From: Kiloniellales bacterium
GTDB lineage: Bacteria; Pseudomonadota; Alphaproteobacteria; Kiloniellales; JAKSDN01
Reading direction: 5' to 3'
DNA: 64,000 bases
Assembly (NCBI GenBank): GCA_033720555.1
Contig: JAWWCG010000001.1
Location: 3,357 to 67,356, forward strand
In this document: positions 26,470-54,990 of the stretch, piece by piece
Layout of the letters: every line of letters starts with the position of its first letter
Position numbering within the stretch: the stretch's first letter is position 1
Made by a program: the position numbers and the translations under genes
The notes under the pieces: model-generated
Database searches by the model: none
Told to the model about the DNA's origin: nothing
The model's input: the letters and a program-made list of their open reading frames with translations, nothing else

Positions 26470-26472
26470 GGC

Positions 26473-37015: not shown

Positions 37016-37141
37016 CTATTTGCGCCTCCAAAGCACCCAGGCAAGGTAGCCAAGGCCAGCCAAAACGAAAGGTTGCTTCCAGAGAGGCTTTTTCTCGGGA
37101 AGGCCATCGTTGCCGACAAACATGAGCTGATTGACCGCCAT
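37016..37141 (-). CDS. 41-aa C-tail-anchored mini-protein
   Basis: TAATG overlap at 37141. MAVNQLMFVGNDGLPEKKPLWKQP + FVLAGLGYLAWVLW + RRK. The anchor is paralogous to 37141..37317. Confidence 0.45.
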   Translation of the reverse strand: MAVNQLMFVGNDGLPEKKPLWKQPFVLAGLGYLAWVLWRRK

Positions 37142-37317
37142 TACCTTTTACCTTTCCAGAGAACCCACCCCAGATAGCCCAGGGCCGCCAGAACCAGTGG
37201 AGAGCGCAGGACATCGCTCAATTCGACCGTTCCCATCGGCGAGGGGTAGCACGAGATGTCGTGGATGTGTCCCCTACCCCTGGGGCCGATGGCTGGGCCA
37301 GTTTTGCAGTACGCCAT
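37141..37317 (-). CDS. 58-aa C-tail-anchored mini-protein
   Basis: ATG 37317, 9 nt after the upstream stop. The C-terminus PLVLAALGYLGWVLW + KGKR. Below the ORF-track cut-off. Confidence 0.45.
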   Translation of the reverse strand: MAYCKTGPAIGPRGRGHIHDISCYPSPMGTVELSDVLRSPLVLAALGYLGWVLWKGKR

Positions 37318-37326
37318 ATCGCTAAG

Positions 37327-37689
37327 TTACCAGATCAGCTTCAAGTGCTCGGCAAGGCGTTTTTGTTCTCGCGCCAACTGGTCAATCGTAGACAATGCTT
37401 TCTTTCCCAGCGCGCGCACCTTTTTGGCTAGCTGGGCGACCTCATCCTCATAGCCGCTGGCCTCGTCTTCCCACAGATCGGCGCTTTCGAGGTCGGTGCG
37501 GGCCTGCTCCCACATCTCGTCGGCTTTCTCGATAGCGTCAGTGGCGTCCTCGGGCGCGAGCGAAAACTCGTCGAGAGCTTCAATGAGCGCCTCTGCAAGA
37601 GACGTGATTCGTTTGCGCTCCTCTTGCAGGTCCTCCCACGAATCAATCAACGATTCGTAGCTGTCCGGCGTTATCTTGCGTCGAGCCAT
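37327..37689 (-). CDS. acidic coiled-coil protein
   Basis: 120-aa ORF with a 1-nt overlap to the upstream gene. Confidence 0.55.
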   Translation of the reverse strand: MARRKITPDSYESLIDSWEDLQEERKRITSLAEALIEALDEFSLAPEDATDAIEKADEMWEQARTDLESADLWEDEASGYEDEVAQLAKKVRALGKKALSTIDQLAREQKRLAEHLKLIW

Positions 37690-38114
37690 TAGCGTTTTTT
37701 GCGAACGATAAAGAGTCCAGCCAACGCCGCAACGCCAAGCGCACCGTATAGAAGCAGGCGCTGATTGGATGATTGCTGCGCCGCCTGCGCGCCCGCATAC
37801 GCGGCGGCCTGGCCAGCGCCAGACGTCACGGGGTCAACGCCTGCGGCAGCTGCCTCGTTGACCGCTGCAATCATTTCGCGAGCCGCCGCTGTCGTATCTC
37901 CACGCCCGACAATGATAGTGGGCGTGACGGCGACGCCATCTTGAAGTACGGTGACGGCGACTTTGCTCTTGTCTCCGCCAGTCGCGCTCGCGCGATGGTC
38001 GCGTCGGATGGTGGTGCCGCCCATGGGAATGTAGCGGCCGGCCTGATGGGCGACCAGGGCAGCCCCGAGGGGTACGCACGAACCTTGGCCAGCGCAGCGT
38101 GGGCAACAACTCAT
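37689..38114 (-). CDS. C-tail-anchored protein with N-terminal CxxC
   Basis: MSCCPRCAGQGSC... The C-terminus LLLYGALGVAALAGLFIV + RKKR. Confidence 0.55.
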   Translation of the reverse strand: MSCCPRCAGQGSCVPLGAALVAHQAGRYIPMGGTTIRRDHRASATGGDKSKVAVTVLQDGVAVTPTIIVGRGDTTAAAREMIAAVNEAAAAGVDPVTSGAGQAAAYAGAQAAQQSSNQRLLLYGALGVAALAGLFIVRKKR

Positions 38115-38347
38115 CGTTTGGCCTCAAACAAGCGGGCCAGGCCCAGCCCCGCGGCCATTGGTACAACCGCGACGGCGAAAGCCTGAACCGCCTGCCAGAA
38201 AGTGGCGCGCTCCTCAGCGCGAATTTCCCGATGGCGCATCGCTAGCTCAACGCGCTCCATGAGATCGAGCTTGTTCAATTCGTCAGGGGAGAACGCCAGG
38301 AGCGCATCTTCCTGTGCTGGAGTGAAGCCCATCGGGATGTAGCTCAT
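38111..38347 (-). CDS. C-tail-anchored protein (MSYIPxGF family)
   Basis: ATGA overlap at 38344-38347. MSYIPMGFTPAQED... The C-terminus FAVAVVPMAAGLGLARLF + EAKR. Confidence 0.55.
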   Translation of the reverse strand: MSYIPMGFTPAQEDALLAFSPDELNKLDLMERVELAMRHREIRAEERATFWQAVQAFAVAVVPMAAGLGLARLFEAKR

Positions 38348-38682
38348 GTCACGTCCACCATCAGGTTGTCGACCACGCGCGCGTGGAGGCCGCAGCCATC
38401 CCACGAGCAGCGAAAAGAATCCATCGAGATCTTGCCTTCTCGCACGCGCAGATTCTTTTGCGGCGTTTCGACCTTCAGAGGCTGGCCGCATTTTGGGCAA
38501 AAAAAGTGCATCAAGAGGCGCCCGGCTTGATCGTAGAGGTCGGCCTCAGAGACGCGGTCGCGGTAGCGGATGCGCGGGTGGAGTCGAGCGTTTCTTGTGA
38601 GGTCATGCTTGCCTTCCGTGCCTCGAAGTTCCGAGTCGGAAGGATGCGCAACGTCGTCGCGGATGGTGAAGTAATCGTTCAT
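38344..38682 (-). CDS. zinc-ribbon protein
   Basis: 112 aa. FFCPKCGQPL ... FRCSWDGCGLH. Confidence 0.55.
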   Translation of the reverse strand: MNDYFTIRDDVAHPSDSELRGTEGKHDLTRNARLHPRIRYRDRVSEADLYDQAGRLLMHFFCPKCGQPLKVETPQKNLRVREGKISMDSFRCSWDGCGLHARVVDNLMVDVT

Positions 38683-38683
38683 G

Positions 38684-38977
38684 TCATTTCCTTCTTCGCG
38701 AGATAATCAGGGCCGCGGCGAGCCCTGCACCTCCGAGAAGGATAAGCGTTTTGTTGCGCTCAAAGAAAGACGGCTCCGCCGGCGGAGTTGCGTAGCCTGG
38801 AGAGGGCGCAGCTGAACCACCGGCGTCAAAGAACCTCGACAGCTGGCCCCCGATCCAGGACCAGGTGTTACCGCCGGCGGCCTTGGCCGGCGCCGGCGGC
38901 GGCGGCTTGGCGCCAATGCTCGCGGGCAGCGTCGGCGCAGGGGCGAGGTTGAGTTGCCCAAGGTGGTGGTAGCTCAT
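38684..38977 (-). CDS. C-tail-anchored Pro/Ala-rich protein
   Basis: MSYHHLGQ... The C-terminus LILLGGAGLAAALIIS + RRRK. Confidence 0.55.
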   Translation of the reverse strand: MSYHHLGQLNLAPAPTLPASIGAKPPPPAPAKAAGGNTWSWIGGQLSRFFDAGGSAAPSPGYATPPAEPSFFERNKTLILLGGAGLAAALIISRRRK

Positions 38978-39216
38978 TTGTTCTTCCGGGTGAACAAGTA
39001 GACGGCGGCAAGCGCCCCTCCTCCGAAAAGAAGGGTTTTGCCGTGCTTATCCATGAAGCTCGGCTCTCGGTACGCCGGCATGGGCGCCAGTGGCTGCGCC
39101 GCCGCGGCGCCCTGTTGCGCGGCCTGTTGGCGCACGCCCGTGAGAATAGACGAAAAGGCGTTCTTGCCCTTTGTCCAGATCGCGTCCCAGTCAACGCCTT
39201 GCGGAATATAGGCCAT
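38974..39216 (-). CDS. C-tail-anchored protein
   Basis: MAYIPQGVDW... The C-terminus LLFGGGALAAVYLFT + RKNK. 4-nt overlap downstream. Confidence 0.55.
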   Translation of the reverse strand: MAYIPQGVDWDAIWTKGKNAFSSILTGVRQQAAQQGAAAAQPLAPMPAYREPSFMDKHGKTLLFGGGALAAVYLFTRKNK

Positions 39217-39845
39217 TACTTCTTCCTCCGAGTGAACATGTAAACAGCCGCGAGGCCGGCGCCCGCGATGATGGCAATCTTTCCCATGCTAAGCCCAGCC
39301 GCCGGGCGCGGCGCGGCGTATGGCCTAATGCGAAGTGCGCCCTCCCCTTTCCCGGGGAGCGGCTCCAGTGAGACGCCTGTCGTGCGGGTTCCCGTCGAAC
39401 CTGCGCCTCCTTTTGTGCCCGTCGGCGGAGGCGCCATTGCGTCGACCGGAGGCTTCTTGAGCAAAGGGATAATGTCGCTGATGGCCATTCCGGACTTCAG
39501 CATATCGACGCATTGCGTTATGCGTTCCTCGGGGATTCCGGCGTACTTGCATTGCGCGCGAAACTGCTCCAGTTCCAGAGCCGATCCAGAGCCTGGGGTC
39601 GCTAGGACCGTTGTTTGCGTCCGCGGAGACACGGTTTGGGTCTGCGTGGTCGTGGCCACCGCAGTAGACGGCATGGCCGTGATGGGGGCCGTCATAGCCG
39701 GAGGGCGAATTGGGTCCGGCGGAGGCGGCGTAGGATCCCTCGCCGGGTCTACCGATAGCAGCGACCGTCCCCCGGGAAGCTCGGCGGGGGAGCGCACGAG
39801 CTGGCGCGCGGCGCCCAGTGCAATGCGATAGCTCATTCGACTCAT
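39216..39845 (-). CDS. C-tail-anchored Pro/Thr-rich protein
   Basis: ATG 39845 (alternative 39836 gives MSYRIALG). The C-terminus IAIIAGAGLAAVYMFT + RRKK. Confidence 0.5.
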   Translation of the reverse strand: MSRMSYRIALGAARQLVRSPAELPGGRSLLSVDPARDPTPPPPDPIRPPAMTAPITAMPSTAVATTTQTQTVSPRTQTTVLATPGSGSALELEQFRAQCKYAGIPEERITQCVDMLKSGMAISDIIPLLKKPPVDAMAPPPTGTKGGAGSTGTRTTGVSLEPLPGKGEGALRIRPYAAPRPAAGLSMGKIAIIAGAGLAAVYMFTRRKK

Positions 39846-39849
39846 TGGT

Positions 39850-40179
39850 TCACTTTTCTCGGCCGAAGAGATAGCCCAGGGCAAAGGAGCCCAGGACAGC
39901 GCCTCCGACGGCGGCTGGGAGCAGCCAGCGATGCTCTTTACTTTTGGCAGCCCAGCGTAGAGGCGTAATGACCTCGCGAAGGCCCAGCCCCCGGCGTGGT
40001 TGGTTGGGCGGCGTCCGTCGGCAAGGTGGCCCGGGGGGGCGACCCTCCTCCAGCGCAGAGATGCGCATGGTGAGGCATGTGACCTCGGGAAGGTACGGAT
40101 CGTCCAGGAGTTTGGCGCCGACGGCCAAGATGCCGCCGGCGCGCTCCATGGTGCTTTGACCTAACGGTAGATAGGTCAC
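39850..40179 (-). CDS. C-tail-anchored protein
   Basis: MTYLPLGQ... The C-terminus WLLPAAVGGAVLGSFALGYLFG + REK. Confidence 0.55.
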   Translation of the reverse strand: MTYLPLGQSTMERAGGILAVGAKLLDDPYLPEVTCLTMRISALEEGRPPGPPCRRTPPNQPRRGLGLREVITPLRWAAKSKEHRWLLPAAVGGAVLGSFALGYLFGREK

Positions 40180-40324
40180 GTCGGCCTCCCAGTCGACCCG
40201 TCATCCGGGCCAATGCGCAACGGGGCTCCGACAGTCCGATGCGCGAAGGTCCAAGACTCCCCCGAGCCACCTGGTACCTCCGTCAGACGACGGGTGACGA
40301 GCCGATTGGGAGGCCGACGCATCT

Positions 40325-40945
40325 TCATTTTCGGCCTCGCGTCGAAACTTCGTGTCGCACTCGCGCACCAATTCCGGCCTTCTCCCAGAGAAACCAGCCC
40401 ACGAGCACGGCGCCGAGAACTTTCATGGGGCCCCAGCGGCCTGCTCCGGCGGCCTCTGCCTTGATTCTCTCAAGCTCGGCCTCTTTTTCAGCCGCCGTGC
40501 GGATCTTGACGACGTACGCCAAAAACGCCAAAGAGCCGCCGACGACGACCAAGAGCGGAACAAGCGGCAAGATTCCTTGAGCCTGCGGGCCGGACACTTC
40601 CCCGAGAGCCCGCTTCGCGAGCTTTGCCGCCGCGTATGGGTCCTGGAGTGACGGGAGATTGGTGTCGCCTGCCTCCGTAAGTAGCCGATGAATTTTTGCC
40701 GCGAGCTGTGCCTCGGACGCCATGTCGCGCCGAGGCATCAGGCCGCCGGGTTTAAGCGTTCGTTTGCCTGTCCGAAATTCCTCGTTGATGGTCCAAAACT
40801 TTAACCATCGACGAAGACCTTTTTTCATGCTGGAAAGTTCAGCGCTCGGGTCGGCATCCGGGGTAGACCCCATGGACTCGACAAGGTGGCCGGCCGGCCC
40901 GATGTAGAGCCGAGCGCCCGGCATGGTCATGTAGGGGCCTGCCAC
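40325..40945 (-). CDS. membrane protein with two C-terminal-half TM helices
   Basis: 206 aa. ILPLVPLLVVVGGSLAFLAYVV and VLGAVLVGWFLW separated by a helical EKEAELERIKAE region. Confidence 0.55.
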   Translation of the reverse strand: MAGPYMTMPGARLYIGPAGHLVESMGSTPDADPSAELSSMKKGLRRWLKFWTINEEFRTGKRTLKPGGLMPRRDMASEAQLAAKIHRLLTEAGDTNLPSLQDPYAAAKLAKRALGEVSGPQAQGILPLVPLLVVVGGSLAFLAYVVKIRTAAEKEAELERIKAEAAGAGRWGPMKVLGAVLVGWFLWEKAGIGARVRHEVSTRGRK

Positions 40946-40954
40946 GATGTCTCC

Positions 40955-41614
40955 TTACATGTTGACAATACGGTAGCCGGGAAGCGCAACCGCCAGGGTG
41001 CCTTCCGTTGGAGGCGTCGCTGCGTTGTTGAAAAGGATGCGTTCGTACGTTGGAAAAAACTGCGCGGTCGCGTTCGGGACCAGAAGCGTCGGTACCGAAA
41101 GGGGGATGAGCTGGTCGGGGCGCGAAAGAAACGCCGGCGTCGGCAGGTTCTGAAAATTGCGTTGACTGCCCGCATCGACCATTTCCCAGCTGATAGCGAC
41201 CAGATCCGTATTGAAGTCCTGGCCTGCCGCAGAGGCTTGCAAAGGAAGCGGCCAGCCGGCAGCGACCGGGCGCCACAGGCCGAACGCCGTGGCCGTGTCG
41301 GGCGCGCTGGGCCGCCAGACGGCCATTGGATAGTGCGTCATGACGAACGGCCCGTCCTGGCTTACGAGGAAGTTGATGGGTTGACCCCGGCGCCCATCGT
41401 CAGAGATATCGAACGTGATAGTTCCGTTGAGGTTGTAAAAAATTCGCCGCCCGGGAATTTTATCGATTTCCTCCGTGATCGACGGGACGCGGTCCGCCAT
41501 CTTCGCGACGATATCCGTCTGCGCTTTAAGGGCGGTGATCTGCTGGGTAAGCGTGTTGACGCGCTGAGAGACTTTCGTAAGGCTCTCGCGTACGTATGAG
41601 GCAAAGTCAGCCAT
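40955..41614 (-). CDS. structural protein: N-terminal coiled coil + beta-rich (jelly-roll-like?) domain
   Basis: ATG 41614. LTKVSQRVNTLTQQITALKAQTDIV, then alternating beta-type sequence (FLVSQDGPFVMTHYPMAVW...AISWEMVDAGSQRNFQN...GYRIVNM). Confidence 0.55.
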   Translation of the reverse strand: MADFASYVRESLTKVSQRVNTLTQQITALKAQTDIVAKMADRVPSITEEIDKIPGRRIFYNLNGTITFDISDDGRRGQPINFLVSQDGPFVMTHYPMAVWRPSAPDTATAFGLWRPVAAGWPLPLQASAAGQDFNTDLVAISWEMVDAGSQRNFQNLPTPAFLSRPDQLIPLSVPTLLVPNATAQFFPTYERILFNNAATPPTEGTLAVALPGYRIVNM

Positions 41615-41785
41615 TCTGATTCCCTGTCTTCGGACCAAGGGTATGGGGCCTGCGCCCCCTCGGCGTCGCGGGTCCGATCCGCGTGGCCGGAAGCGAAGAA
41701 GGGAAGGATCAGAACGCTATGCGTTTTTCGATTGCAGTTCGGCGTGGAGGTGCGCGAACTAGCTCAAGCCTACAAGGGCGACCAC

Positions 41786-42715
41786 TTACAGCGCAATCCA
41801 GTTCGTCATGCCGTCGGTTACGAAAAGGTTTGCACCGCTCGCCGCGATGGCAAACGGCCCGGCGATGAGGTCGATGGTGTCACCGCCGGTCGGCGTTACC
41901 GTGAGGGCTGCGCCGGGAATGATTTCCTTGATCCAGGCACCTGTGCCTGCCGGCAATGACGCCGCCAAGGGAAGCGGCTGCGCAATGGCGCCACCGCTTG
42001 TGTCGAAAAGAAGAATGGCGTTTGGAATCACCGCCGCCGCGGGAAGAGGAGCTGCGGACGGTGGAGCGCCCGGCGGAGGATCTTGCAAAAGAATGTTGGG
42101 CTGTACCAGTGCCGCAATGTTTTCGGCGCCAACCCAGACGACAGGAGTACCCGAGCCGCCCCCCGCAGATGTGTTGTTTCTTGTGACTCGCAAGAATGGA
42201 TACGCCTCATCGGCCTGGCTTTGGCAATCCGGCGACTGAAAGGAAAGCGACGTCGGAACAAAATTGACGTCATCGAGCGAGCCCTCAATGGTCAGCGTGC
42301 CCGCATAGTCGCTGTCGCCCGTCGCCTGCACGACAAACGTTCGAATAGCTCCCGCAGTGGATAAATCGACGCTTGCGCCGGAGCCGTCGCCGGCGGTCAC
42401 GGGTAGCATCGTGAATGAATTCGCAAGGGTTGCATCAATCCCGCCAACGTCTATGGTTGCGCCCGAGGCGTCGCCGTTTGTAACCGTGACGCGCATTTCA
42501 TCGGCCACGGCGCCAATTTGCTTCGTTCCTGGCGACGTGAACGTAACGACCGGACAGAAGGAGCTTCCCCCAGCGGATACCTCAATGTTCACCGATGCGC
42601 CGGTGAGCGTGCCGCTGACGGCGATAACCTTTGAAAACCCAATGTTGGCCGTGCTGGCAGCGGCTCCGGAGCCGACGCCGGCCGGCGCAGGTAGATTTGC
42701 GGTAAGAATGGGCAT
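41786..42715 (-). CDS. Fibre paralog 3 (duplicated N-terminal module + short C-terminal domain)
   Basis: 309 aa. LPAPAGVGSGAA...SFCPVVTF...MRVTVTNG, then LPVTAGDGSGAS...FLRVTRNN. Confidence 0.7.
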   Translation of the reverse strand: MPILTANLPAPAGVGSGAAASTANIGFSKVIAVSGTLTGASVNIEVSAGGSSFCPVVTFTSPGTKQIGAVADEMRVTVTNGDASGATIDVGGIDATLANSFTMLPVTAGDGSGASVDLSTAGAIRTFVVQATGDSDYAGTLTIEGSLDDVNFVPTSLSFQSPDCQSQADEAYPFLRVTRNNTSAGGGSGTPVVWVGAENIAALVQPNILLQDPPPGAPPSAAPLPAAAVIPNAILLFDTSGGAIAQPLPLAASLPAGTGAWIKEIIPGAALTVTPTGGDTIDLIAGPFAIAASGANLFVTDGMTNWIAL

Positions 42716-42727
42716 GGTCGTCGTCTC

Positions 42728-43552
42728 CTAGTTGGCTTTGATGAGCGTGATGCGGCGATTGTAAATGTTGACCGTACCGGTTCCGGATGCGCGCCGGAAA
42801 ATGGCGCGAATCCCGTCGCCTGTCGTAAGGCCGGAGAAGAGATGCGTCGTCGTCGAATTGCGCCGGGAGGAGCCTTGCGTTTGCCTTGCAGTTCCTGCCA
42901 CCGCTGTGGTGGTGGAGTTTAGGCCAAGGGCGATTTCGCCAACCGTGTTGTTGGTGGTGTTGTCCGTATCGGTCTCAAAAATGGCAAGGTAGTCTCCGTC
43001 CTCCGAAGGATTGAGGGCGCTACCAAACGCTGCCGCAAACGTTGCCGATGTTGTCCCGGATGAGCTAGTCGAGTTCTGACTGGCAGCGGCGTTGGATGTT
43101 GCGCTCGCGGGTATTCCGTCAAGTTTACTTTTGTCCGCGGCCGACATGAAGCCGGAGACGCCGGCTGTCGCCGCCGTGTGAAGTGTTCCCCCGCCTCGGC
43201 TTCCGTGAGCATGTACGTGGTCGGATCGAGGAAAGCTGTTGGCAGAGCCCGCGCTATTTGTGGTGTCGGAGATCGCTATGGGTGCTCCCAGGGAGAGCGG
43301 ATCGCTTCCGGAGGGGGCGTGTCGGCTGCCGTGAGTGTCAAGGTCGACCTGCGGGTTGCTTAGGTCGAGGACGAACCCAACGGACTCCATAAATTGGTCA
43401 AGAGTGTCAACGGCTCCTGACACGGCGTCGTCGATTTGCAGGACAACGCCCTCGGTGAACGTGGAGACGCCTGACGCAGTGGGAGACACTTCTATCTGAA
43501 GGCGCTGGTTGGATACGCCAGCGCGACGGTATATGCGTTGAACAATCGCCAT
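42728..43552 (-). CDS. Tail-fibre-like protein
   Basis: HGSRHAPSGSDPL ... FPRSDHVHAHG ... AGVSGFMSAADKSKLDGI are motifs common in phage tail-fibre proteins. Ser/Thr-rich linker. Confidence 0.7.
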   Translation of the reverse strand: MAIVQRIYRRAGVSNQRLQIEVSPTASGVSTFTEGVVLQIDDAVSGAVDTLDQFMESVGFVLDLSNPQVDLDTHGSRHAPSGSDPLSLGAPIAISDTTNSAGSANSFPRSDHVHAHGSRGGGTLHTAATAGVSGFMSAADKSKLDGIPASATSNAAASQNSTSSSGTTSATFAAAFGSALNPSEDGDYLAIFETDTDNTTNNTVGEIALGLNSTTTAVAGTARQTQGSSRRNSTTTHLFSGLTTGDGIRAIFRRASGTGTVNIYNRRITLIKAN

Positions 43553-45411: not shown

Positions 45412-45464
45412 CCAGTCCTCCTAACGCAAGTAAAACTTTTCAACAGCACGGCGGGCAAGTGTGG

Positions 45465-45500
45465 AACAAACGGCCCGAACGGAGCGCCGGGCCGTTTGTT
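45465..45500 (-). terminator. 13-bp perfect hairpin after the 194-aa structural gene (no U-tract)
   Basis: AACAAACGGCCCG / CGGGCCGTTTGTT with a 10-nt loop, 17 nt downstream of the stop at 45517. Confidence 0.4.
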
Positions 45501-45516
45501 GCCAACGGAAAGTTAG

Positions 45517-46101
45517 CTACTGCACATCACGTGTTTGTAGGCCGTCCAGCATCAGGAGGATGACCTTCTGATCATCAGTTGCGCCGCCGTTGATAAGAGT
45601 CAGCGCGTCGGTGGTCCCAACCGAGAACCATTCCATGTTAGCGTTAAAATTTTGCCGGACCGGGACCACAATCGGTCGCGCCAATTTCATGATGGCATCA
45701 GCTGAGGGCCAGCCGTGATTGTAGATCGGCGTTGCGGCAGCGGCACCGCCGTCTCCAAACACGCCGCCGCCGGCAGGCAGGTACCAGCTGGGGCACTGAA
45801 ACTGCGGCTTGTCGCCAAGGTTAAGCGTTACGTACAGCTGAGACACGGTCTGCTGATACAGCTCGCGGATGTTCGTGCCATCAAAATACAGCCAGAGGCG
45901 AAGCGACAGGATCACATAAGTTTGATCCGAGGCCAGTTGGCCCGCCACTTGAAGATTGGTGAGCGCCAAGTTCCCCACATTGGCGTTCCCGAAAAGTCGA
46001 GTCGATGGGGTGATGGGAGTCGCCGGCGTTCCAGTGGTCCGAATCAGGCTATCCCAAAACGGTTGATGGCGACGTTCTCGAATACCATGAAGACGAGGCA
46101 T
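45517..46101 (-). CDS. abundant-looking beta-rich structural protein (capsid candidate)
   Basis: 194 aa. Strong SD (GAGGAAGG) after a structured 195-nt leader, and a hairpin after the stop. Beta-strand-like sequence (TYVILSLRLWLYF, LYVTLNL, VILLMLDG). Confidence 0.55.
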   Translation of the reverse strand: MPRLHGIRERRHQPFWDSLIRTTGTPATPITPSTRLFGNANVGNLALTNLQVAGQLASDQTYVILSLRLWLYFDGTNIRELYQQTVSQLYVTLNLGDKPQFQCPSWYLPAGGGVFGDGGAAAATPIYNHGWPSADAIMKLARPIVVPVRQNFNANMEWFSVGTTDALTLINGGATDDQKVILLMLDGLQTRDVQ

Positions 46102-47778: not shown

Positions 47779-47921
47779 GACGCTCCTAGGAAACGCGGCC
47801 AGAGGTCGGAGTAGCCACGGGAAGTTTGTTTATGCTCGCAAGATTGCTCACGACAGACAAGAAGAACTCTTTGCAAGGGCCACTGCTGGAGTCTGGCGCC
47901 GGGAAAAAATCCATCGGTGCA

Positions 47922-48209: not shown

Positions 48210-48222
48210 GGTCTCATGCCTC

Positions 48223-48753
48223 CTAGTCGACAATGCCTCGGGCCTCGATGCGCATCTTGCCGCCCCAGAGCATGCCCAGAAGCTTGCGCTTGCCATGGAT
48301 GACTAGAAGGCATCGGCCCGAGGGTACGCAGTAAAGCTCGGGGTACGGGCGCTTGGTGTGAGACTCGATCTTGTCGTCGCCCTCTAAATATGTGAACCCC
48401 AGGCATTTGCCGAGAAGAGTCAGCGTCTTGGCAGACCGGAACGTCCTCGGGACTGCCTTGATGCGCCCTTCCCCGCCCTCGATGGGCTTGTAGGCTCGTA
48501 CGCCATTGGAGAACTCGTGGATGTAGTTGTGCGTGCCATCGTTCCACTTGTCGCTGCGATAAAGGACATTGACGGCTGGGCCAAGCGGAACCACTGCCTC
48601 TGGGATCTGGAGGGAGCGATGAAACACGCCGATCTCGCGAGCGTCGCGGTCCTGGAAGACGCCATAGCGATGAATTGCGCGCCCCATGTCGCGGGGGTAG
48701 CCTTCGCTCGCCTTGCGCGTTGGTGCGCGACTGGTGGCTCGATTCTTTCGCAT
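48223..48753 (-). CDS. hypothetical structural-operon protein
   Basis: Internal ATG (48753) forms a TGATG overlap with the upstream stop, with GGAGGA upstream. 176 aa. Confidence 0.55.
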   Translation of the reverse strand: MRKNRATSRAPTRKASEGYPRDMGRAIHRYGVFQDRDAREIGVFHRSLQIPEAVVPLGPAVNVLYRSDKWNDGTHNYIHEFSNGVRAYKPIEGGEGRIKAVPRTFRSAKTLTLLGKCLGFTYLEGDDKIESHTKRPYPELYCVPSGRCLLVIHGKRKLLGMLWGGKMRIEARGIVD

Positions 48754-49274
48754 CAGGTCCTCCGCTTGGCCCACTCCTGATAGACGATATAGGCAAACGT
48801 CGCGTAGACGCCCCATTTGATGAGGTTGGTGGTCAACTCAAGCCCGCGGCCTGCTCCACGGGCGAGAGTCTCTGCCTTGTCTGCAAGTTCCGACGCGCTT
48901 TCCGAGACCGACTCCCAGGCAAGCGTTAGGCCACTCGGAGGCGGGTAATTAGCAGAGCTGCGCTCGATAGCAAATTTCGCACCCTTAGACCAGAAATCCT
49001 CATTGGCGGGATATTCAAAGGACCCCATGCGCCCCAGGAGCCCAGCGCCGGGAAGAGTCGCCGCCCATGCTCTGGCGGCGTCCTGAAGCGGTGCGCCCCA
49101 GTTGATGTTTGGGTCGTACGTCTTCTGGATAAAGCTCGAATAGAAGTCATAGACATCGCGATACGTCGACCGCGGTATCAAGGAGCTGCTGTTTACGCCA
49201 GGGCGATAGCCGCGTTTTAGGCGCAGCTCCCTCTTCTTGGCCATGAAGTATGTGACGGGATCAACGGAAGGCAT
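48753..49274 (-). CDS. C-tail-anchored protein
   Basis: ATG 49274 forms a TAATG overlap. The C-terminus LIKWGVYATFAYIVYQEW + AKRRT. Confidence 0.55.
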   Translation of the reverse strand: MPSVDPVTYFMAKKRELRLKRGYRPGVNSSSLIPRSTYRDVYDFYSSFIQKTYDPNINWGAPLQDAARAWAATLPGAGLLGRMGSFEYPANEDFWSKGAKFAIERSSANYPPPSGLTLAWESVSESASELADKAETLARGAGRGLELTTNLIKWGVYATFAYIVYQEWAKRRT

Positions 49275-49591
49275 TAGCGCTTCTTCCTTAGGTAGATATA
49301 TGCGGCAGCCGCGCCAACCAGGAGCCATGGCGCCGGAATGCCCGCAATGCTCGCGCCTAGCCCAGAAAGCGCCGTGCCACCGCGGCTTGCGATGAGGCCA
49401 GCCGCCCGCGGCCCCGAGCCGATGTACTTTGCGCCCGAGGGAAGTCGTCGAGCCGCACTGTCGGGGCTGAGGCCAAGGCGATGGCTGTGGCCATAATTTG
49501 GGTGAGGGGCAAACACGCCATCGCGAAGCGAGCCAGGGGCTACATAGTGGTCGTATTGCTTCTTCTGGTAATCCCAGACCGAATAGCGCAT
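49274..49591 (-). CDS. C-tail-anchored protein
   Basis: 105 aa. The C-terminus APWLLVGAAAAYIYL + RKKR. Confidence 0.55.
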   Translation of the reverse strand: MRYSVWDYQKKQYDHYVAPGSLRDGVFAPHPNYGHSHRLGLSPDSAARRLPSGAKYIGSGPRAAGLIASRGGTALSGLGASIAGIPAPWLLVGAAAAYIYLRKKR

Positions 49592-49594
49592 CGC

Positions 49595-49972
49595 TTACTT
49601 CTTTCGCAGAAGAAGCCAGCCGACTACGGCGGCGGCGCCGGCAAGGGCAAGGTTCCGACCGGAAAGTTCGAAGCCGTCGACGTGCCGAAGGCCATGGGTG
49701 TGCAACCAATACGGTGAGCCTTCCTTTCGCACCTCAAAGAACGGAAGACGTTGCTCGCGCTTGTGGAGGTAGTATGGGCTGTCCTTGTCAGGGACACGGA
49801 AGAACTGCGAAAGGTTGGTCACGTCGCCCATCGTGACCGGCGTTCCTTCGTCAAGTTCCATGACGTCCGCCAGCGCGCGATGTTCGGCCGACCAGGAGCG
49901 GCCTTCTGGCAGACCTTTCCATCGCCCCTGGTATTCTGGCTGCTGAAAGCCAAAGCGATATCCGAGGGGCAT
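49595..49972 (-). CDS. C-tail-anchored protein
   Basis: 125 aa. The C-terminus LALAGAAAVVGWLLL + RKK. TAATG overlap at 49972. Confidence 0.55.
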   Translation of the reverse strand: MPLGYRFGFQQPEYQGRWKGLPEGRSWSAEHRALADVMELDEGTPVTMGDVTNLSQFFRVPDKDSPYYLHKREQRLPFFEVRKEGSPYWLHTHGLRHVDGFELSGRNLALAGAAAVVGWLLLRKK

Positions 49973-50895
49973 TAGCGGCGTCCTTTCTTCTTGGCCGGTT
50001 TTTTCGTTTGCGTCATCGCCAGAAGGATTCCGCCTCCAATGGCCGCCAAACCAATCGGCGACATCGCAAACTCCATGAGGCCGCCTTTTGGCTTGAGGTC
50101 GGGCGGGTGAATGACTTGCCCTGACGGGCTGGCAATTGAAGGAGGCTGCTCTGGCGGAGGCGACGGAGGTCGCGCAGGGGCGCGACGCTGGTCAGCGTAG
50201 TCTTTGAACTCGGCGAGAAGGACGTCTGCGACCGAAGCGACGCCATCCTCGGTCCCAAAGGGAACGATAGACATGCCGAGTGCGTCCTGGGCCTTCTGCA
50301 CGCTGTCAATGGTGTCGGGTCCAATGCGTCCATCAATGCCCACGGCCTTCGCTGCCCCGACAGCCGCCATGCGATTGAGCTGCGTTTGAAGACCCTTGAA
50401 CACGGCGAGCGTCTGAGCATCCATTGGAATTGCGATGCCAGCCAGGACGCGGCAATTGGGCTTTGGGTGCCGTTTGGAGCACCAGGAGGTCGTGCTTAGG
50501 TTGCCCATCGCCAAGCGGCCTCCTTTGATTTCTCGCAAAGCGCCCAGGCCCTCGTCGAAGGGATTCACGGGCGCTCGCTTGGTGGGTGACGCATTGAGAA
50601 CGTCCTCAACGATGTTGACCCAGGGACGACTCTTCCACTGCGGCCCGGCGACGATGCGCAGAGCGCGCATGGTCGCGTCGTCGACAAAGCCGTCGCGGCG
50701 GGTGAAGTACCCAAGCCGCGACAAGTAGCTCTGAATTCCTTCGACGAGCATAATGATGTTTGGCGCATAGGGGTCCACCGTCGATGGCGTAAACCATACA
50801 AAGGGAATGATCATTGTCGCATTGACGCGATCAATGCCGAGGTCCATGAGGATGTCGACGACATCGTTTTGCCCTTGAGGCCGTGGCTCGCGCAT
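49972..50895 (-). CDS. C-tail-anchored protein with two peptidoglycan-binding-like (PG_binding_1-like) repeats
   Basis: IQSYLSRLGYFTRRDGFVDDATMRALRIVAG and LNRMAAVGAAKAVGIDGRIGPDTIDSVQKAQ. The C-terminus IGLAAIGGGILLAM + KKPAKKKGRR. Confidence 0.55.
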   Translation of the reverse strand: MREPRPQGQNDVVDILMDLGIDRVNATMIIPFVWFTPSTVDPYAPNIIMLVEGIQSYLSRLGYFTRRDGFVDDATMRALRIVAGPQWKSRPWVNIVEDVLNASPTKRAPVNPFDEGLGALREIKGGRLAMGNLSTTSWCSKRHPKPNCRVLAGIAIPMDAQTLAVFKGLQTQLNRMAAVGAAKAVGIDGRIGPDTIDSVQKAQDALGMSIVPFGTEDGVASVADVLLAEFKDYADQRRAPARPPSPPPEQPPSIASPSGQVIHPPDLKPKGGLMEFAMSPIGLAAIGGGILLAMTQTKKPAKKKGRR

Positions 50896-51936
50896 TTATT
50901 TCCTCGTGAGAATGAATGCCAGGGCGACGGCGCCGCCGGCGATGGCGATGGGGACGATGGGAAGGCCACCGGCGGGTTGCGCGACGGGCATTTGCGGAGG
51001 CGGTGGCGGGTCACTGGCGCAGAGTGCGGCGCCAATCTGAGCGCCTGCCATCCCCGCTTGAGGCGGGGCGCCCAGCGCCCCGGCCCCAGCTCCAACGGCG
51101 ACTTGCCCGGTGGGATGTGATGCGACGCGACAGGCGGCGTTGGCAATCTTGGATAGCGCCTTTTTGCCGAAATCGTAGGCGGCCGATGCGCCCGAGCGAA
51201 CGGCGCTTCCGATTCTCTTGGCGCCGCTGTAGATGCCCTTGCCGGTCGCCGTTACTGCCCGGGCCGGGGCCGTCACGACGCTCTTGACTCTCGACCAGAA
51301 ACCTTCAAGCACCGCCTGCTCTGCCTCGGCGCCATAGCAGCCAAGGCCCATGAGAGATTTGAGCTGAGGCGACTTTCCGCTTCTTCCGGCCTTCACGAAA
51401 TCCTCGACGAGGCCCTGGCTCATGGCCGAGGCAATGCCCCCGCGCAGCGCCGCGGCGGCAGTGGCCCCCTGCATGCGGAGCTGGTTGGCCTTTTGCGATA
51501 CGCGCACCCATAGCTTGGGGTCCACTTCGTCAAAAAGGGCCTTCATGGCGGCCTTGCGCTCTGATTGCGGAACCTGCTGGATTGCCTTCATGATGTAGGA
51601 CGCCACGGTTTTTCCAAAATCACCGACGGGGTCAGACGCGGGCCCAAGGCCGCCCTCGTCGTCACCTAGGTAATCGAGAACGCCGGTGTCGATCGTGCGT
51701 CGCGGCATATATTTGGTCCGGCGCGCGTTCACGCGCTCAGTGGCAGGGCCTTCGAGAAGGACGTGGTCGGGGTATGCAAAGCCCGGTCGCCAGGCTTTTG
51801 TGATCTCGCGCGGTACGAGCGTGTCGACCGTTCGGCGCGGCATATACTTGGTGCGGTGGGCGCCTCGCCCTGGCGCTTCGACGCTCACCCAGCTGGGAAG
51901 CGCGAAGCCGGGATTCCATGGCGGTGGGATCTTCAT
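50896..51936 (-). CDS. C-tail-anchored protein with internal W-PGFA-P...RTKYMPRRT-DT repeat
   Basis: ATG 51936 with AGGAG upstream. Two ~42-aa repeats. The C-terminus LPIVPIAIAGGAVALAFIL + TRK. Confidence 0.55.
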   Translation of the reverse strand: MKIPPPWNPGFALPSWVSVEAPGRGAHRTKYMPRRTVDTLVPREITKAWRPGFAYPDHVLLEGPATERVNARRTKYMPRRTIDTGVLDYLGDDEGGLGPASDPVGDFGKTVASYIMKAIQQVPQSERKAAMKALFDEVDPKLWVRVSQKANQLRMQGATAAAALRGGIASAMSQGLVEDFVKAGRSGKSPQLKSLMGLGCYGAEAEQAVLEGFWSRVKSVVTAPARAVTATGKGIYSGAKRIGSAVRSGASAAYDFGKKALSKIANAACRVASHPTGQVAVGAGAGALGAPPQAGMAGAQIGAALCASDPPPPPQMPVAQPAGGLPIVPIAIAGGAVALAFILTRK

Positions 51937-51946
51937 AGGTCGACTC

Positions 51947-52423
51947 CTAGGCGACAGGCCAGAAGCGCTCGGCGACGACCCGACCGTGCATCTCATCGGT
52001 GCGCCCGCCGGCTACGGGGTCAAGGGTAATCCAGCGTCCGGAGCGGGGCTCGCGGGCCTGGGCAAAGACATGGCTGTATTGGCGTTGCCCGCGATAGAAC
52101 ATATCGCGGAAGGCGACCGTCACAATGCGGCACTGGCCGCCGACGGCTAAGATGAGGGCGCAGATGAGCGCCGCCATGTCGTCGCAGTCAAGGCTTGGAA
52201 TCTTTCCGGCGGCAAGTTCCTTTGCGACCAGGCTAGGGCTGCGGACAAGCTCAACCGTGCGAGGGTCGCGGGAATAGCGCGTGCGCGAAAGGACGTAGTA
52301 GTAGATGGCAAGGTACTCAGAGAGAAAGTCCTTGCTGGGGAGGCCGCCGACGATGTCCTCGGCGAGAGAGCGGACGGCGTAGTCGTTCTGAGACGTCAGC
52401 GCCGCCCGCCGAATCACCGCCAC
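51947..52423 (-). CDS. Transglutaminase-like cysteine protease-fold protein
   Basis: SLDCDDMAALICALILAVGGQCRIV ... YSHVFAQA ... RWITLDPV. Cys/His/Asp order and spacing are as in the transglutaminase-core superfamily. Confidence 0.55.
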   Translation of the reverse strand: MAVIRRAALTSQNDYAVRSLAEDIVGGLPSKDFLSEYLAIYYYVLSRTRYSRDPRTVELVRSPSLVAKELAAGKIPSLDCDDMAALICALILAVGGQCRIVTVAFRDMFYRGQRQYSHVFAQAREPRSGRWITLDPVAGGRTDEMHGRVVAERFWPVA

Positions 52424-52480
52424 GGTCTGCGGGGCCCCTTGGTAGGGGCTGCGTTGTACCGTCTTATGGAGGCGCAGGGG

Positions 52481-54079
52481 TCATGGGCTTTCCTCGGCAA
52501 CCGGTGGGTCAGGGTCTGTCGTACCTTCCAGGAGGAATTTCGCGACCTGTCGGACGTAATCGCGACCAGCGACTGTGGCTAGGGGAGAGCCGTCCTCGAT
52601 AGTAGCAACTTTGTTCAGGAAGGCGTCAATCCCTTCCCGCTTCACATAGGCCAAAATTCCCTGCGGGATCATGTTGCGGGCCGATTGTGCCAGGACGGTA
52701 GCGGGGGTGTTGTTGCGATACGCCGCCTCCAAGAGGAGGACCGCCTTCTTGATGTCGGCAGGGTCGACGTTGAGCGGCGGACCGTTGGCTTCGGCCTCCG
52801 CCTTCGCCTTTTGCGCGGCCTGCATGCGGGCCACGACGCTCGCTGGCATTTGCACGAGCTTGCCGTCAGGGCGGCGCACGGTGACCATCTGCTCGACGGG
52901 GGGCTCGCCCTCGGGCAGCTCCGAGGGGCCTTCGGCGTCATCCGGGTCAAATTCGCCGCTGCCTGCGACCCGGGTCGCGATTCCCTTGGCAAGCGAGCTG
53001 TTGAAGACCAGCTCGGCGGCGCGCTCCCAGCCCGTCTTTGGTGACTCATCGTTGTTGGGCAAAAGAGCGTCAAATCCCGACTTCAAGCTCACAAGTCCTT
53101 GGATTTGCTCAAGGGGGCTCTGCTCTTTTCGGGCTCGCAAGGCCGCCAGCTCAGACTCTCGGGCCTCTAGCTCGCGCTCCAGGCGGCGCATGATGTCTTT
53201 GAGGCCGTCCACGCGCATTTCGAAGCCGTGACGCTGGCTGTCCATCGCCTGCTGGTGAGCCTGGGCCATGGTGGCCAGCTCGCGCGCATGGGATTCGCGC
53301 ATCGCCTGCATGTCGCGCTCGTGGCGATCTTCCCGCCGGCGAATTTCCTCGCGGTTGAAGTCGCGCATCTGGCGAAGCTCGCTCTCATGGGTCTGCCGCA
53401 GGCTGTCTAGGCGGTTTGCCTCCTGCGAGCTGGACTTGTCCATGAGGTCGATGAGGCGGTCAGAGGCGCTCGTGTCGGCCGGCCGGTTCAAGACGCTGAT
53501 GAGGGCCTGCTCCTTTTGGTTGAGGGCGTCCTGCATCAGCCGCAACTGATCGCGTAGCGGGTCCATGACGCGCGAGATGCCATCCCAGTCGGTGCCCTGG
53601 GAAGCGCGCTCGCGTTCGCGCTCGGCGCGCCTCTCTGCGTCCTGGGCCATTTGATGGGCCAGGCTCATTGCATGCTCGACCGGGCCATTGGCGGCCTTGC
53701 CATTGGGCGACGGCGAATCCTCGTGCATGAGCGAATCAATTCGCGGCACGCCGGCAATGTCGAAGGTTCGCGCGCCCGCATAGCGCCAGGTTGGGGAGCC
53801 CTTCTTGGTCCGCGCAGGCTTGTGAACGATGAGCTGGTAGCGCCCCCCGCCATGCTCCTGCGCGATGCGCTCCACGGTGACGGGCTCCTCATAGCGCGAG
53901 AGGCTACCGCCGGTCTTGATGCCCTTGTACGTCGTCGGCGAGATGCGCTTCAGCATGACCCGGATGGCGCCCTCAGAGCCGAACTGACTCATCCAGTCAT
54001 ATAGTTCTTGGTCGCTATCCTTTTCGATTTGCTCCTCGGGGGAGTCGATCTCGTCTTCAAACTCAACTGCTGGCGGCAC
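52481..54079 (-). CDS. Coiled-coil-rich protein (scaffold-like)
   Basis: 532 aa. The central ~200 aa are charged heptad-like (AERRAERERERA...RQMRDFNREEIRRREDRHERDMQAM...ELEARESELAALRARKE). Confidence 0.55.
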   Translation of the reverse strand: MPPAVEFEDEIDSPEEQIEKDSDQELYDWMSQFGSEGAIRVMLKRISPTTYKGIKTGGSLSRYEEPVTVERIAQEHGGGRYQLIVHKPARTKKGSPTWRYAGARTFDIAGVPRIDSLMHEDSPSPNGKAANGPVEHAMSLAHQMAQDAERRAERERERASQGTDWDGISRVMDPLRDQLRLMQDALNQKEQALISVLNRPADTSASDRLIDLMDKSSSQEANRLDSLRQTHESELRQMRDFNREEIRRREDRHERDMQAMRESHARELATMAQAHQQAMDSQRHGFEMRVDGLKDIMRRLERELEARESELAALRARKEQSPLEQIQGLVSLKSGFDALLPNNDESPKTGWERAAELVFNSSLAKGIATRVAGSGEFDPDDAEGPSELPEGEPPVEQMVTVRRPDGKLVQMPASVVARMQAAQKAKAEAEANGPPLNVDPADIKKAVLLLEAAYRNNTPATVLAQSARNMIPQGILAYVKREGIDAFLNKVATIEDGSPLATVAGRDYVRQVAKFLLEGTTDPDPPVAEESP

Positions 54080-54578
54080 TGGGCGCCTCCTCTTCGTCGC
54101 CGGCGGGGGCGGCTTGCATGGTGGCCTGGGCGTCGCCGTCGCCGTCGTCGTCGCTGTCGTCGTCGGTAGCGTCCTCGATGGTCACGTCTTCGACCATCTC
54201 CGAGCAGACCGTCGCGGCGTGCTCGAAGGCCCCGACCATGTTGGCCAACTCGGTCGGCATAGGAGCATCGGCGGTCCAGACATCCAGCTTGCGAATCATT
54301 TCGCAAAGCGTGGCGCCGATCCCCAGGGTCCCCTGGATGCGGCCCGCCAGCATAGGCAAAAGGATTGACTCCCCGCCGCTGAGGTATTCGGCGACGGCGT
54401 CCTCGACGGCCTGGACCCGGTCGCCCTGCTCGCTTGCGGACTGCGCGATTGCGGCGGCGATAAAGCGAAGGAGCGGATAGACGTTGTTCTCTAGCTCCTT
54501 TTTTGGGTCTATCACCGCCGCGCCGGCGATAACTTTCTGCGCGCGGTCAATTTCACTCAGAATCGTTGCTGCGTCCAT
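54063..54578 (-). CDS. hypothetical protein with poly-acidic C-terminus
   Basis: 171-aa ORF. The tail is DATDDDSDDDGDGD. Overlaps neighbours on both sides. Confidence 0.5.
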   Translation of the reverse strand: MDAATILSEIDRAQKVIAGAAVIDPKKELENNVYPLLRFIAAAIAQSASEQGDRVQAVEDAVAEYLSGGESILLPMLAGRIQGTLGIGATLCEMIRKLDVWTADAPMPTELANMVGAFEHAATVCSEMVEDVTIEDATDDDSDDDGDGDAQATMQAAPAGDEEEAPSAASS

Positions 54579-54990
54579 CGGAGCCTCCTAGGCCATGCTT
54601 TCGAGACCAGCGTGCCTGGCGACGCTCACGCCGGCGAATCAGGAGAGGCGCCGGGTCCCATTGGTTGCACGTATAAACGGGTGAGTCGCCAGAGAGTTCA
54701 AGGAAGACGCCCGGGATTGCCGTGCAATAGCGGTGGGTTTGCCGCGGCGCCTTCGTCAAGGACCCTGCCGGGTTACCGGCATCGAAGTGGCTTTCCGCTC
54801 GGAAGTAATACCGGCAGTCGCGGACGCACGGAACGAACTCAGGCTCGTACGGTTTCGCCGCCTCGGGCGGCGGCAGCGGTAGCGCCGGGACTCCCAGAAG
54901 CGCCCCAGGCGGCATGGGCGACGGCTCGCCCGACTCAAGCGTCCCCATTGCGGGCGCTTGCTTGTCCTCGTCCCTTGCTGAACCTCGCAT
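54553..54990 (-). CDS. first gene of the late operon; Cys-containing protein
   Basis: 145-aa ORF adjoining the 950-nt non-coding region. Confidence 0.45.
   Translation of the reverse strand: MRGSARDEDKQAPAMGTLESGEPSPMPPGALLGVPALPLPPPEAAKPYEPEFVPCVRDCRYYFRAESHFDAGNPAGSLTKAPRQTHRYCTAIPGVFLELSGDSPVYTCNQWDPAPLLIRRRERRQARWSRKHGLGGSDGRSNDSE

Follow-up and report, generated by a model that had tools for sequence, protein, structure and literature searches.

The sequence considered here is a 64,000-nucleotide window of contig JAWWCG010000001.1 (assembly GCA_033720555.1), the minus strand of which carries a late operon between about 34.5 and 55.0 kb encoding a long series of small proteins, each with a hydrophobic helix at the C-terminus followed by a short basic tail (C-tail-anchored proteins). 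The operon extends over 20.5 kb, 95% of it coding, and at 13 of its junctions the start and stop codons overlap by 1 or 4 nt (TAATG, ATGA, GTGA, TGATG, and TTGA), which agrees with the near gap-free operon with overlapping starts and stops described in an earlier note on this DNA. The 13 open reading frames (ORFs) listed in that note as encoding anchored proteins are all present on the minus strand at the coordinates below. Together with two cases outside the operon they are as follows, with lengths in amino acids (aa), mean Kyte-Doolittle hydropathy (KD) where relevant and identities to relatives among the 23 related loci used for comparison.

50896..51936, minus strand: 346-aa C-tail-anchored protein, tail TRK, with the strongest anchor (KD 2.55)
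49972..50895, minus strand: 307-aa C-tail-anchored protein with a peptidoglycan-binding domain (PG_binding_1, E 1.2e-5), anchor and tail QTKKPAKKKGRR
49595..49972, minus strand: 125-aa C-tail-anchored protein by hydropathy, tail RKK, TAATG overlap with the upstream gene
49274..49591, minus strand: 105-aa C-tail-anchored protein by hydropathy, tail RKKR, 28-49% identical in relatives
48753..49274, minus strand: 173-aa protein with a borderline, aromatic and amphipathic C-terminal hydrophobic stretch (KD 0.84, below threshold), tail AKRRT, TAATG overlap
39850..40179, minus strand: 109-aa C-tail-anchored protein, MTYLPLG start, tail ending in REK, 30-42% identical in relatives
39216..39845, minus strand: 209-aa C-tail-anchored protein by hydropathy, Pro/Thr-rich linker, tail RRKK
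38974..39216, minus strand: 80-aa C-tail-anchored protein, MAYIPQG start, tail TRKNK, paralogue of 38684-38977
38684..38977, minus strand: 97-aa C-tail-anchored protein by hydropathy, tail RRRK
38111..38347, minus strand: 78-aa C-tail-anchored protein, MSYIPMG start, paralogue of 13687-13887
37689..38114, minus strand: 141-aa C-tail-anchored protein by hydropathy, tail RKKR
37141..37317, minus strand: 58-aa C-tail-anchored protein, tail KGKR, paralogue of 37016-37141
37016..37141, minus strand: 41-aa protein with a short (~15-residue), borderline C-terminal hydrophobic stretch (KD 1.01), tail RRK, also a gene in the ENA contig
507..1223, plus strand: N-acetylmuramoyl-L-alanine amidase (Amidase_2, E 3e-13) with a C-terminal anchor at residues 217-233
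13687..13887, plus strand: 66-aa C-tail-anchored protein outside the operon, by hydropathy and motif, MSYIPVG start

Anchors were scored from the best 17-residue window that had a mean KD of at least 1.2, held no more than one charged residue and stopped no further than 12 residues from the C-terminus, with a net positive tail also demanded; transmembrane (TM) segments were called by hydropathy alone. Eleven of the 13 operon proteins pass this strict rule, namely every minus-strand entry above apart from 37016-37141 and 48753-49274, so that the C-terminal helix and basic tail claimed for all 13 stand for 11, with these two borderline. The script also flagged 41786-42715, a false positive with a net negative tail. 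Residue-shuffled operon proteins gave 1.6 ± 1.2 anchor matches with a maximum of 5 in 500 trials, and a mirror test for N-terminal anchors found one operon protein only. Outside the operon just two of 63 genes are real anchored cases, the amidase gene (507-1223) and 13687-13887, the same two that had been named before. Ala, Leu, and Gly make up 24%, 21%, and 16% of the anchor helices, respectively, and the net charge of the tails ranges from +1 to +7. That the C-terminal helices are membrane anchors, a test set beforehand, is consistent with their hydropathy and with a frequency far above the shuffled expectation.

A recurrent N-terminal start, M-[ST]-Y-[IL]-P-x-G, had also been claimed for several of these proteins. 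The motif M-[AST]-Y-[ILV]-P-x-G is strict in three proteins (those starting at 13687, 38347, and 39216) and looser in three more, with the reversed pattern giving zero matches; the recurrence within the window thus stands, while the motif is nearly absent from relatives. It was rejected as a lineage signature and, because of this near-absence, appears to mark a local paralogue family instead. The most widely conserved anchored protein is 49274..49591, which is present even in distant relatives on large contigs, and the gene for the 346-aa anchored protein (50896..51936) is conserved in relatives directly downstream of a transglutaminase-like gene. Beyond the earlier list, the operon encodes three further membrane proteins:

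40325..40945, minus strand: 206-aa protein with a membrane hairpin of two hydrophobic segments, basic at its end, conserved in related loci L008, L009, and L012
47922..48296, minus strand: 124-aa protein, N-terminally anchored (membrane segment at residues 29-62), helical tail, with homologues in L007 and L006
46297..47778, minus strand: 493-aa arginine-rich membrane protein from its translation, with one TM helix (269-289), 22-54% identical in relatives

Two small beta-rich products of the operon had been picked out as candidate capsid or spike proteins, and AlphaFold2 (AF2) models, scored by predicted local distance difference test (pLDDT) and predicted TM-score (pTM), predict that both are single jelly-rolls:

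45517..46101, minus strand: capsid protein candidate 1, 194 aa, single jelly-roll (AF2 pLDDT 72.9, pTM 0.68)
40955..41614, minus strand: capsid protein candidate 2, 219 aa (AF2 pLDDT 88.1, pTM 0.73)

The candidate 1 model is a beta-sandwich with one helix, while in that of candidate 2 an eight-strand sandwich (jelly-roll) comes after an N-terminal helix of 37 residues. The single jelly-roll fold of both candidates is thus shown at the level of predicted models. The best PDB fold matches of candidate 1 are the SH1 virion chains g, a, and h (probability 0.75-0.95), followed by chains of Sulfolobus polyhedral virus 1 (SPV1; probability 0.44-0.77). For candidate 2 the top Foldseek matches are a cyanophage cement protein and HHIV-2 virion chain 6h82_A (probability 0.97), with SH1 6qt9_C lower down. 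SH1 and HHIV-2 chains are therefore the best capsid-shell matches, with weak scores, those at probability 0.95-0.97 having E 7e-3 to 2e-2 and TM-scores of 0.33-0.42, and homology of the candidates to sphaerolipovirus capsid proteins is, on these models, a lead. Profile comparison detects no relationship between candidates 1 and 2, hhalign against PRD1 P31 found nothing and a search of the capsid candidate profile against PDB chain sequences gave nothing useful. As regards a double jelly-roll, the library scans gave no family match and both candidates (194 and 219 aa) are single sandwiches. Candidate 1 is the most conserved gene over the 23 related loci (57-75% identity in the close clade) with candidate 2 second (47-60%). 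The two are adjacent in most relatives, candidate 2 lying directly downstream in L006, L008-L010, L012, L013, and L017, and in the window a three-gene spike cassette (41786-45411) is inserted between them.

The window represents 64 of 69.1 kb, or 93%, of a complete genome. Exact look-ups place it on a 69,133-bp ENA contig and on a 69,219-bp NCBI contig, the latter labelled as part of a Kiloniellales metagenome-assembled genome (MAG). In the ENA contig the right end of the window continues through 5,078 extra bases into the left end of the window, and the ends of the ENA contig, which sit within a perfect 72-bp tandem repeat (47333-47484), are in turn bridged by uninterrupted window sequence. 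With terminal overlaps removed both assemblies give the same length (69,133-55 = 69,219-141 = 69,078 bp). Since the contig ends are bridged both ways and the lengths agree, the genome of about 69.1 kb is complete and circular or circularly permuted.

Families were sought with Pfam for every ORF of at least about 200 aa, PHROGs for most and NCBIfam for core proteins, and the fold-level check covered two proteins, the capsid candidates. No terminase, portal, or HK97 capsid was found in these scans of the whole genome, including the 5 kb beyond the window, and no tail tube, sheath, or tape-measure, with only weak PHROG fibre or tail matches; the failure of the earlier note to recognize any of these genes by eye is therefore matched by all three libraries. 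Likewise, the search outside the window for a tailed-phage module recovered about 5 kb without a terminase, portal, or HK97 module. A six-frame Walker A scan that took in ORFs of 80 aa or more in the window and in the bridging locus found the motif within a single called gene, that for a 117-aa product at 31075-31428 on the plus strand, and no credible Walker A ORF was found within ±10 kb of the capsid gene in the 23 relatives either. Judged by its translated sequence, the genome is without any credible P-loop NTPase, which argues against a hidden large terminase and also means that it lacks the packaging ATPase usually found in tailless dsDNA phages. The ORF with the motif (30973-31428, plus strand) was rejected as a packaging ATPase, its 117-aa product lying within a small-gene cluster. 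This cluster (31075-32372, plus strand) consists of five small genes (117, 72, 88, 85, and 71 aa) between minus-strand blocks, the first with the Walker A-like motif.

Taken together, we favor the view, with a probability of about 0.7, that the window belongs to an uncultured temperate tailless phage with an icosahedral shell of two single jelly-roll proteins over an internal lipid membrane, the anchored series being its membrane protein set. The evidence for the membrane is indirect, consisting of 11-14 anchored proteins and three other membrane proteins in the operon. The anchors, the completeness of the genome, the lack of tailed-phage genes, the predicted jelly-roll folds, and the link to SSIP-1 are shown, while the membrane itself, the topology, and the roles of the proteins are inferred. 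An internal-membrane phage had been suggested in the earlier note and is supported by the anchors, the lack of a tailed-phage module, the jelly-roll predictions, and a parallel with the Salisaeta phage SSIP-1 (see below), such that the novel membrane-remodelling machine put forward there as an alternative is not needed. A tailed phage whose hallmark genes are too divergent to be recognized, with the jelly-rolls as cement or decoration proteins and the anchored proteins serving in lysis, superinfection exclusion, or remodelling of the host membrane, is improbable. Such a phage would be consistent with the jelly-roll cement proteins (Pam1 7eel_H, KHP30/KHP40) among the top fold matches, with the fibre-like proteins and their weak PHROG tail and tail-fibre matches and with a genome size that is usual for tailed phages. 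However, three hidden Markov model libraries applied to a complete genome gave no terminase, portal, HK97, tube, sheath, or tape-measure, a large terminase always has a P-loop ATPase and no credible one is present, it would be unusual for decoration proteins to be encoded by the best-conserved genes of a lineage and more than 11 anchored proteins co-transcribed with structural genes do not resemble a lysis cassette.

SSIP-1, the closest isolate to the tailless phage proposed here, is reported to be a circular 44-kb phage with an internal membrane and a T=49 shell made up of two kinds of capsid protein, both with vertical single beta-barrels; it has not been classified and has almost no relatives in sequence databases (PMC6356626, PMC4958249, PMC6260650, PMC5332951). 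Both genomes are circular double-stranded DNA, and both carry on one strand a long structural operon with many genes for C-tail-anchored proteins. In SSIP-1 (JN880423, 21296-40363) this operon encodes 9-10 such proteins (gp34, ORF36, ORF39, gp41, ORF42, ORF50, ORF52, gp53, and ORF54), which end in a helix rich in Gly and Ala and a tail that is short and polar or basic. Three of them are annotated as structural, and no mention of the pattern was found in the reviews on SSIP-1 that were consulted. An integrase-like gene and a pair of genes whose products, at about 200 aa, are of capsid size (gp45/gp46 in SSIP-1) are likewise common to both. The sole significant match between the proteomes involves the gene following:

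51947..52423, minus strand: transglutaminase-like (Cys-protease fold) protein (Transglut_core, E 1.5e-8), 48-62% identical in relatives

This product, which had been noted as a protein with a Cys-protease fold, as 49972-50895 had been as PG-binding-like, both assignments being upheld by the Pfam matches given above, is homologous to the SSIP-1 structural protein gp34 (blastp E 2e-11, phmmer 4e-9), which has Transglut_core too. In SSIP-1 gp34 carries its own anchor, whereas here and in relatives the transglutaminase-like gene adjoins a separate anchored-protein gene. The longest ORF for that 346-aa anchored protein starts at 51996 and overlaps the transglutaminase-like gene by 50 nt (51947-51996); the ATG at 51936, with AGGAG in front, is the more likely start. 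SSIP-1 differs further in its size (44 kb as against 69 kb) and in the 2,319-aa gp43, which is absent here, while the six spike paralogues and the arginine-rich membrane protein belong to the present lineage. SSIP-1 is an orphan, whereas the present lineage has hundreds of members.

The spike paralogues are six proteins at three loci (1230-3107, 22583-23428, 23725-26469, 26473-28446, 41786-42715, and 43552-45411) with a common N-terminal module of about 190 aa, made of two repeats of about 95 aa, that is 31-52% identical between them, and with unrelated C-termini. They and a neighboring fibre-like gene are arranged as follows.

43552..45411, minus strand: 619-aa spike or fibre paralogue, shared N-terminal module, weak PHROG tail-protein match
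42728..43552, minus strand: 274-aa fibre-like protein, weak PHROG tail-fibre matches (E 3e-4 to 2e-3), TGATG overlap
41786..42715, minus strand: 309-aa spike paralogue, shared N-terminal module
1230..3107, plus strand: 625-aa spike paralogue, shared N-terminal module
22583..28446, minus strand: second spike cluster and a small ORF, encoding 281 aa (22583-23428), 914 aa (23725-26469), and 657 aa (26473-28446)

The proteins encoded at 43552-45411 and 1230-3107 are 44% identical over their full length. The six paralogues have no Pfam or PDB sequence match, and comparison of four spike or fibre proteins with PDB chain sequences gave nothing useful. To judge from the shared module, they are likeliest to be interchangeable receptor-binding spikes that dock on one site. 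Downstream of the second cluster lie two pairs of small paralogues (20527-21105/21106-21657 and 21654-22373/22373-22555, minus strand); no family assignment was obtained for them and they may be spike accessory or assembly proteins. The 493-aa arginine-rich protein (46297-47778), conserved in the close clade, consists of an arginine-rich N-terminal region of about 200 aa, the central TM helix, and an acidic C-terminal repeat region, and its gene contains the 72-bp repeat (2.1 copies) that forms the break point of the ENA assembly. It might, speculatively, tether DNA to the membrane and condense it there, a role of interest because the packaging ATPase is missing. Many anchored proteins, six spike paralogues, a glycosyltransferase, an arginine-rich DNA-condensing candidate, and the lack of a packaging ATPase would also be compatible with an external envelope or a pleomorphic vesicle, in which the anchored proteins and spikes would sit in the outer envelope and the jelly-rolls would be matrix or spike components. 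We give such a virion little credence, as it does not account for two highly conserved adjacent jelly-roll genes with capsid-shell matches and a scaffold-like protein, enzymes directed at peptidoglycan would suit a phage that enters and leaves the cell without budding and the parallel is with SSIP-1, reported as icosahedral with an internal membrane (PMC6356626).

At least 673 homologues of candidate 1 (66-81% identity) were found, their contigs repeatedly topping out at 60-87 kb, and an exhaustive profile search gave 458 clusters (50% identity) at E ≤ 1e-3. The lineage is found on contigs of 68-86 kb and distant relatives on contigs of 94-179 kb. In a survey of ±10 kb around the capsid gene the anchored series was present in all 23 related loci, with 2-11 proteins on the strand of the capsid gene and almost none on the opposite strand. 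Distant candidate 1 homologues (33-44% identity) with anchored neighbors also occur on L021-L028, IMG/VR contigs of up to 179,401 bp. The lineage is without a cultured member: neither megablast of the operon, run against 50,697 phage records, nor tblastn of the two capsid candidates, run against 50,697 phage genomes and 72,556 PLSDB plasmids, gave a match, and no description of the lineage, or of tail-anchoring in membrane-containing phages, was found in the literature searched, which did not cover subscription journals. L006-L010 and the NCBI record of the window are near-complete lineage genomes inside MAGs of inconsistent hosts, labelled Kiloniellales, Gemmatimonadota (two), Thermomicrobiales, Galbitalea, and Deltaproteobacteria. 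Since their capsid genes are 58-76% identical despite these labels, sequence comparison suggests that they are free viral contigs mis-binned into MAGs. The host would be bacterial, as indicated by the peptidoglycan enzymes and GGAGG-type ribosome-binding sites. The distribution also bears on whether the circular element might be non-viral, a plasmid or integrative element with a membrane-embedded transfer or secretion apparatus, for which its integrase-like gene, RecT and YqaJ, PcfJ-like protein, SLT transglycosylase (VirB1-like function), and many small membrane proteins could be cited. We consider this very improbable, with 18 relatives classed as viral contigs in IMG/VR and no homologue in the plasmids searched, no VirB4/VirD4-type or other credible P-loop ATPase, no relaxase or pilin families in the library scans, and a capsid-like jelly-roll pair as the conserved core.

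The tailless membrane-containing phage that we favor may be compared with other viruses of this kind, in which membrane proteins were counted by a TM scan of annotated proteins at a stricter threshold (mean ≥ 1.5). These made up 19 of 31 proteins in PRD1, 16 of 31 in P23-77, and 8 of 18 in the SH1 structural block, mostly N-terminally anchored or multi-pass, with the few C-terminal cases mostly tiny peptides. The view that arrays of small membrane proteins characterize internal-membrane phages is hence borne out as regards their abundance, although the C-tail design is not general; with sizeable N-terminal domains it is a narrower trait, common to SSIP-1 and the present lineage. The Sphaerolipoviridae, Matshushitaviridae, and Simuloviridae (SH1, HHIV-2, and P23-77; kingdom Helvetiavirae) resemble the present genome in two adjacent small single jelly-roll genes, many small membrane proteins in the morphogenesis module and cell-wall hydrolases in the virion gene set. 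An FtsK/HerA packaging ATPase is a core gene of sphaerolipoviruses (PMC5332951), unlike here, their genomes are 16-31 kb as against 69 kb, their membrane proteins are mostly N-terminally anchored or multi-pass and there is no profile-level similarity to VP16/VP17 or VP7/VP4. PRD1 (Tectiviridae) likewise has an internal membrane full of small viral proteins, which serve in assembly, packaging, and delivery of the DNA, and its virion carries a transglycosylase and a muramidase (PMC3782422). It differs in having one double jelly-roll capsid protein (395 aa) and P9 as packaging ATPase, in its linear genome of 15 kb with a terminal protein, and in anchoring its membrane proteins N-terminally. SPV1 (Portogloboviridae), chains of which are among the candidate 1 fold matches, has a circular genome, an internal membrane, and a basic nucleoprotein core and is not known to have a packaging ATPase. 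These traits would parallel the missing ATPase and the arginine-rich protein here, while SPV1 differs in its archaeal host and 20-kb genome.

Several observations weigh against a tailless membrane-containing phage. The PDB fold matches are weak, none reaching E ≤ 1e-3 (E 5e-3 to 5e-2, TM-score 0.3-0.45), and generic jelly-rolls match too, including phage cement proteins and the influenza HA head. Profile comparisons of the candidates with P23-77 VP16/VP17, SH1 VP7/VP4 (hhalign), and SSIP-1 gp45/gp46 were negative, and no significant sequence similarity was found between SSIP-1 gp44-48 and the capsid candidates. When the 57 SSIP-1 proteins are ranked by a broad candidate profile, gp46 comes out on top, though its E of 0.15 is not significant; only one homologue of gp46 turned up in 5.8 billion proteins, too few for a deep gp46 profile. 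The best BFVD match of candidate 1, I1ZBH9 (211 aa; E 3.3e-5, probability 1.0), has the same length as gp46, its protein identity being unconfirmed. The transglutaminase-like domain is widespread, so the gp34 link alone is not specific. The Walker A scan of the 69-kb genome found no FtsK/HerA-type packaging ATPase, and the structural P-loop ATPase gp40 of SSIP-1 (AAA_25, E 5e-11) has no counterpart here. Finally, C-tail anchoring is not usual in PRD1, P23-77, or SH1.

In the virion envisaged, the two single jelly-roll proteins (45517-46101 and 40955-41614) would form the shell, as in SSIP-1 and sphaerolipovirus-type viruses, and the 11-14 C-tail-anchored proteins would be the complement of the internal membrane. 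A sole hydrophobic helix at the extreme C-terminus precludes co-translational targeting, so that tail-anchored proteins in general are inserted after translation. The anchored proteins would accordingly be finished in the cytoplasm as soluble N-terminal domains and inserted post-translationally, and because their only hydrophobic helix is C-terminal these domains would stay on the cytoplasmic face, which would be the capsid-facing side. In PRD1-type assembly the capsid lattice forms at the cytoplasmic face of a virus-specific membrane patch; for this reason the N-terminal domains would come to lie between membrane and shell. The short basic tail would lock the helix, with the tails ending on the DNA side, and the N-terminal domains could provide membrane-to-capsid links and cell-wall functions for entry and exit. 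A wall-directed set would comprise the PG-binding anchored protein, the anchored amidase, the SLT transglycosylase, and the transglutaminase-like protein. The six spikes with their shared docking module would bind receptors and the membrane-anchored arginine-rich protein would probably condense the DNA.

Few phage isolates are tailless and contain a membrane, and such phages are believed to be far more numerous than present counts suggest. The virion type is already known, the lineage being set apart from described members by 69-86 kb genomes, no packaging ATPase, the arginine-rich membrane protein, and the six-member spike family, with a tail-anchored membrane proteome common only to it and SSIP-1 among described members. 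It is possible, though doubtful, that this genome is the first to show in full a large and uncultured lineage, distributed worldwide, of tailless two-jelly-roll phages that contain a membrane, and that this lineage has dispensed with the FtsK/HerA motor and condenses its DNA on a protamine-like arginine-rich protein while membrane and shell close, with an almost purely tail-anchored membrane proteome. If true, the lineage would be at least a new family, linking the orphan SSIP-1 to a major environmental group. The lineage would give SSIP-1 many relatives and widen the genome size range of the virion type, and it raises the question of how a 69-kb genome is enclosed without a recognizable packaging ATPase. 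The tail-anchored design would offer a simple sequence signature for finding similar viruses and the series a natural system for post-translational membrane insertion in bacteria. Contigs of the lineage should leave the MAGs now holding them (six bacterial groups).

The remaining genes of the operon, in the order of transcription, are as follows.

54553..54990, minus strand: 145-aa Cys-containing protein, first operon gene, also a gene in the ENA contig, 39-40% identical in L007 and L012; no family match in library scans
54063..54578, minus strand: 171-aa protein with an acidic C-terminus, strong coding score, conserved in L007 and L012; no family match in Pfam, PHROG, or NCBIfam
52481..54079, minus strand: 532-aa soluble protein with a long charged helical middle, no TM segment, 25-43% identical in relatives; no Pfam, PHROG, or NCBIfam family; candidate scaffold or assembly protein
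48223..48816, minus strand: conserved soluble protein of about 197 aa, start uncertain, no TM segment, 28-41% identical in nearly all relatives; no family match in Pfam, PHROG, or NCBIfam; candidate vertex or minor capsid protein
38344..38682, minus strand: 112-aa soluble Cys-rich protein, no TM segment, 22-42% identical in relatives
34516..35724, minus strand: GT4-type glycosyltransferase at the distal operon end (Glycos_transf_1, E 5.5e-8), 4-nt overlap with 35721-36392

No tRNA genes were found in the genome and promoter and terminator scans gave nothing above chance. The approximately 5 kb beyond the window contain five small ORFs, a 417-aa protein with weak helix-turn-helix and replication-initiator-like matches, the SLT transglycosylase, and two further ORFs without assignment. 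Elsewhere the genome encodes YqaJ, RecT, and a weak tyrosine-integrase match, together with a methyltransferase, the PcfJ-like protein, an HNH endonuclease, and the GT4 glycosyltransferase. Two early or accessory regions (4157-8001, minus strand, and 55943-63777, plus strand) hold the weak tyrosine integrase, methyltransferase, RecT, and YqaJ, and the right-hand plus-strand block (55943-63777) also encodes a DUF3846 protein and another product whose weak match is AcrVA2-like (anti-CRISPR). This content suggests a temperate lifestyle with counter-defence genes.

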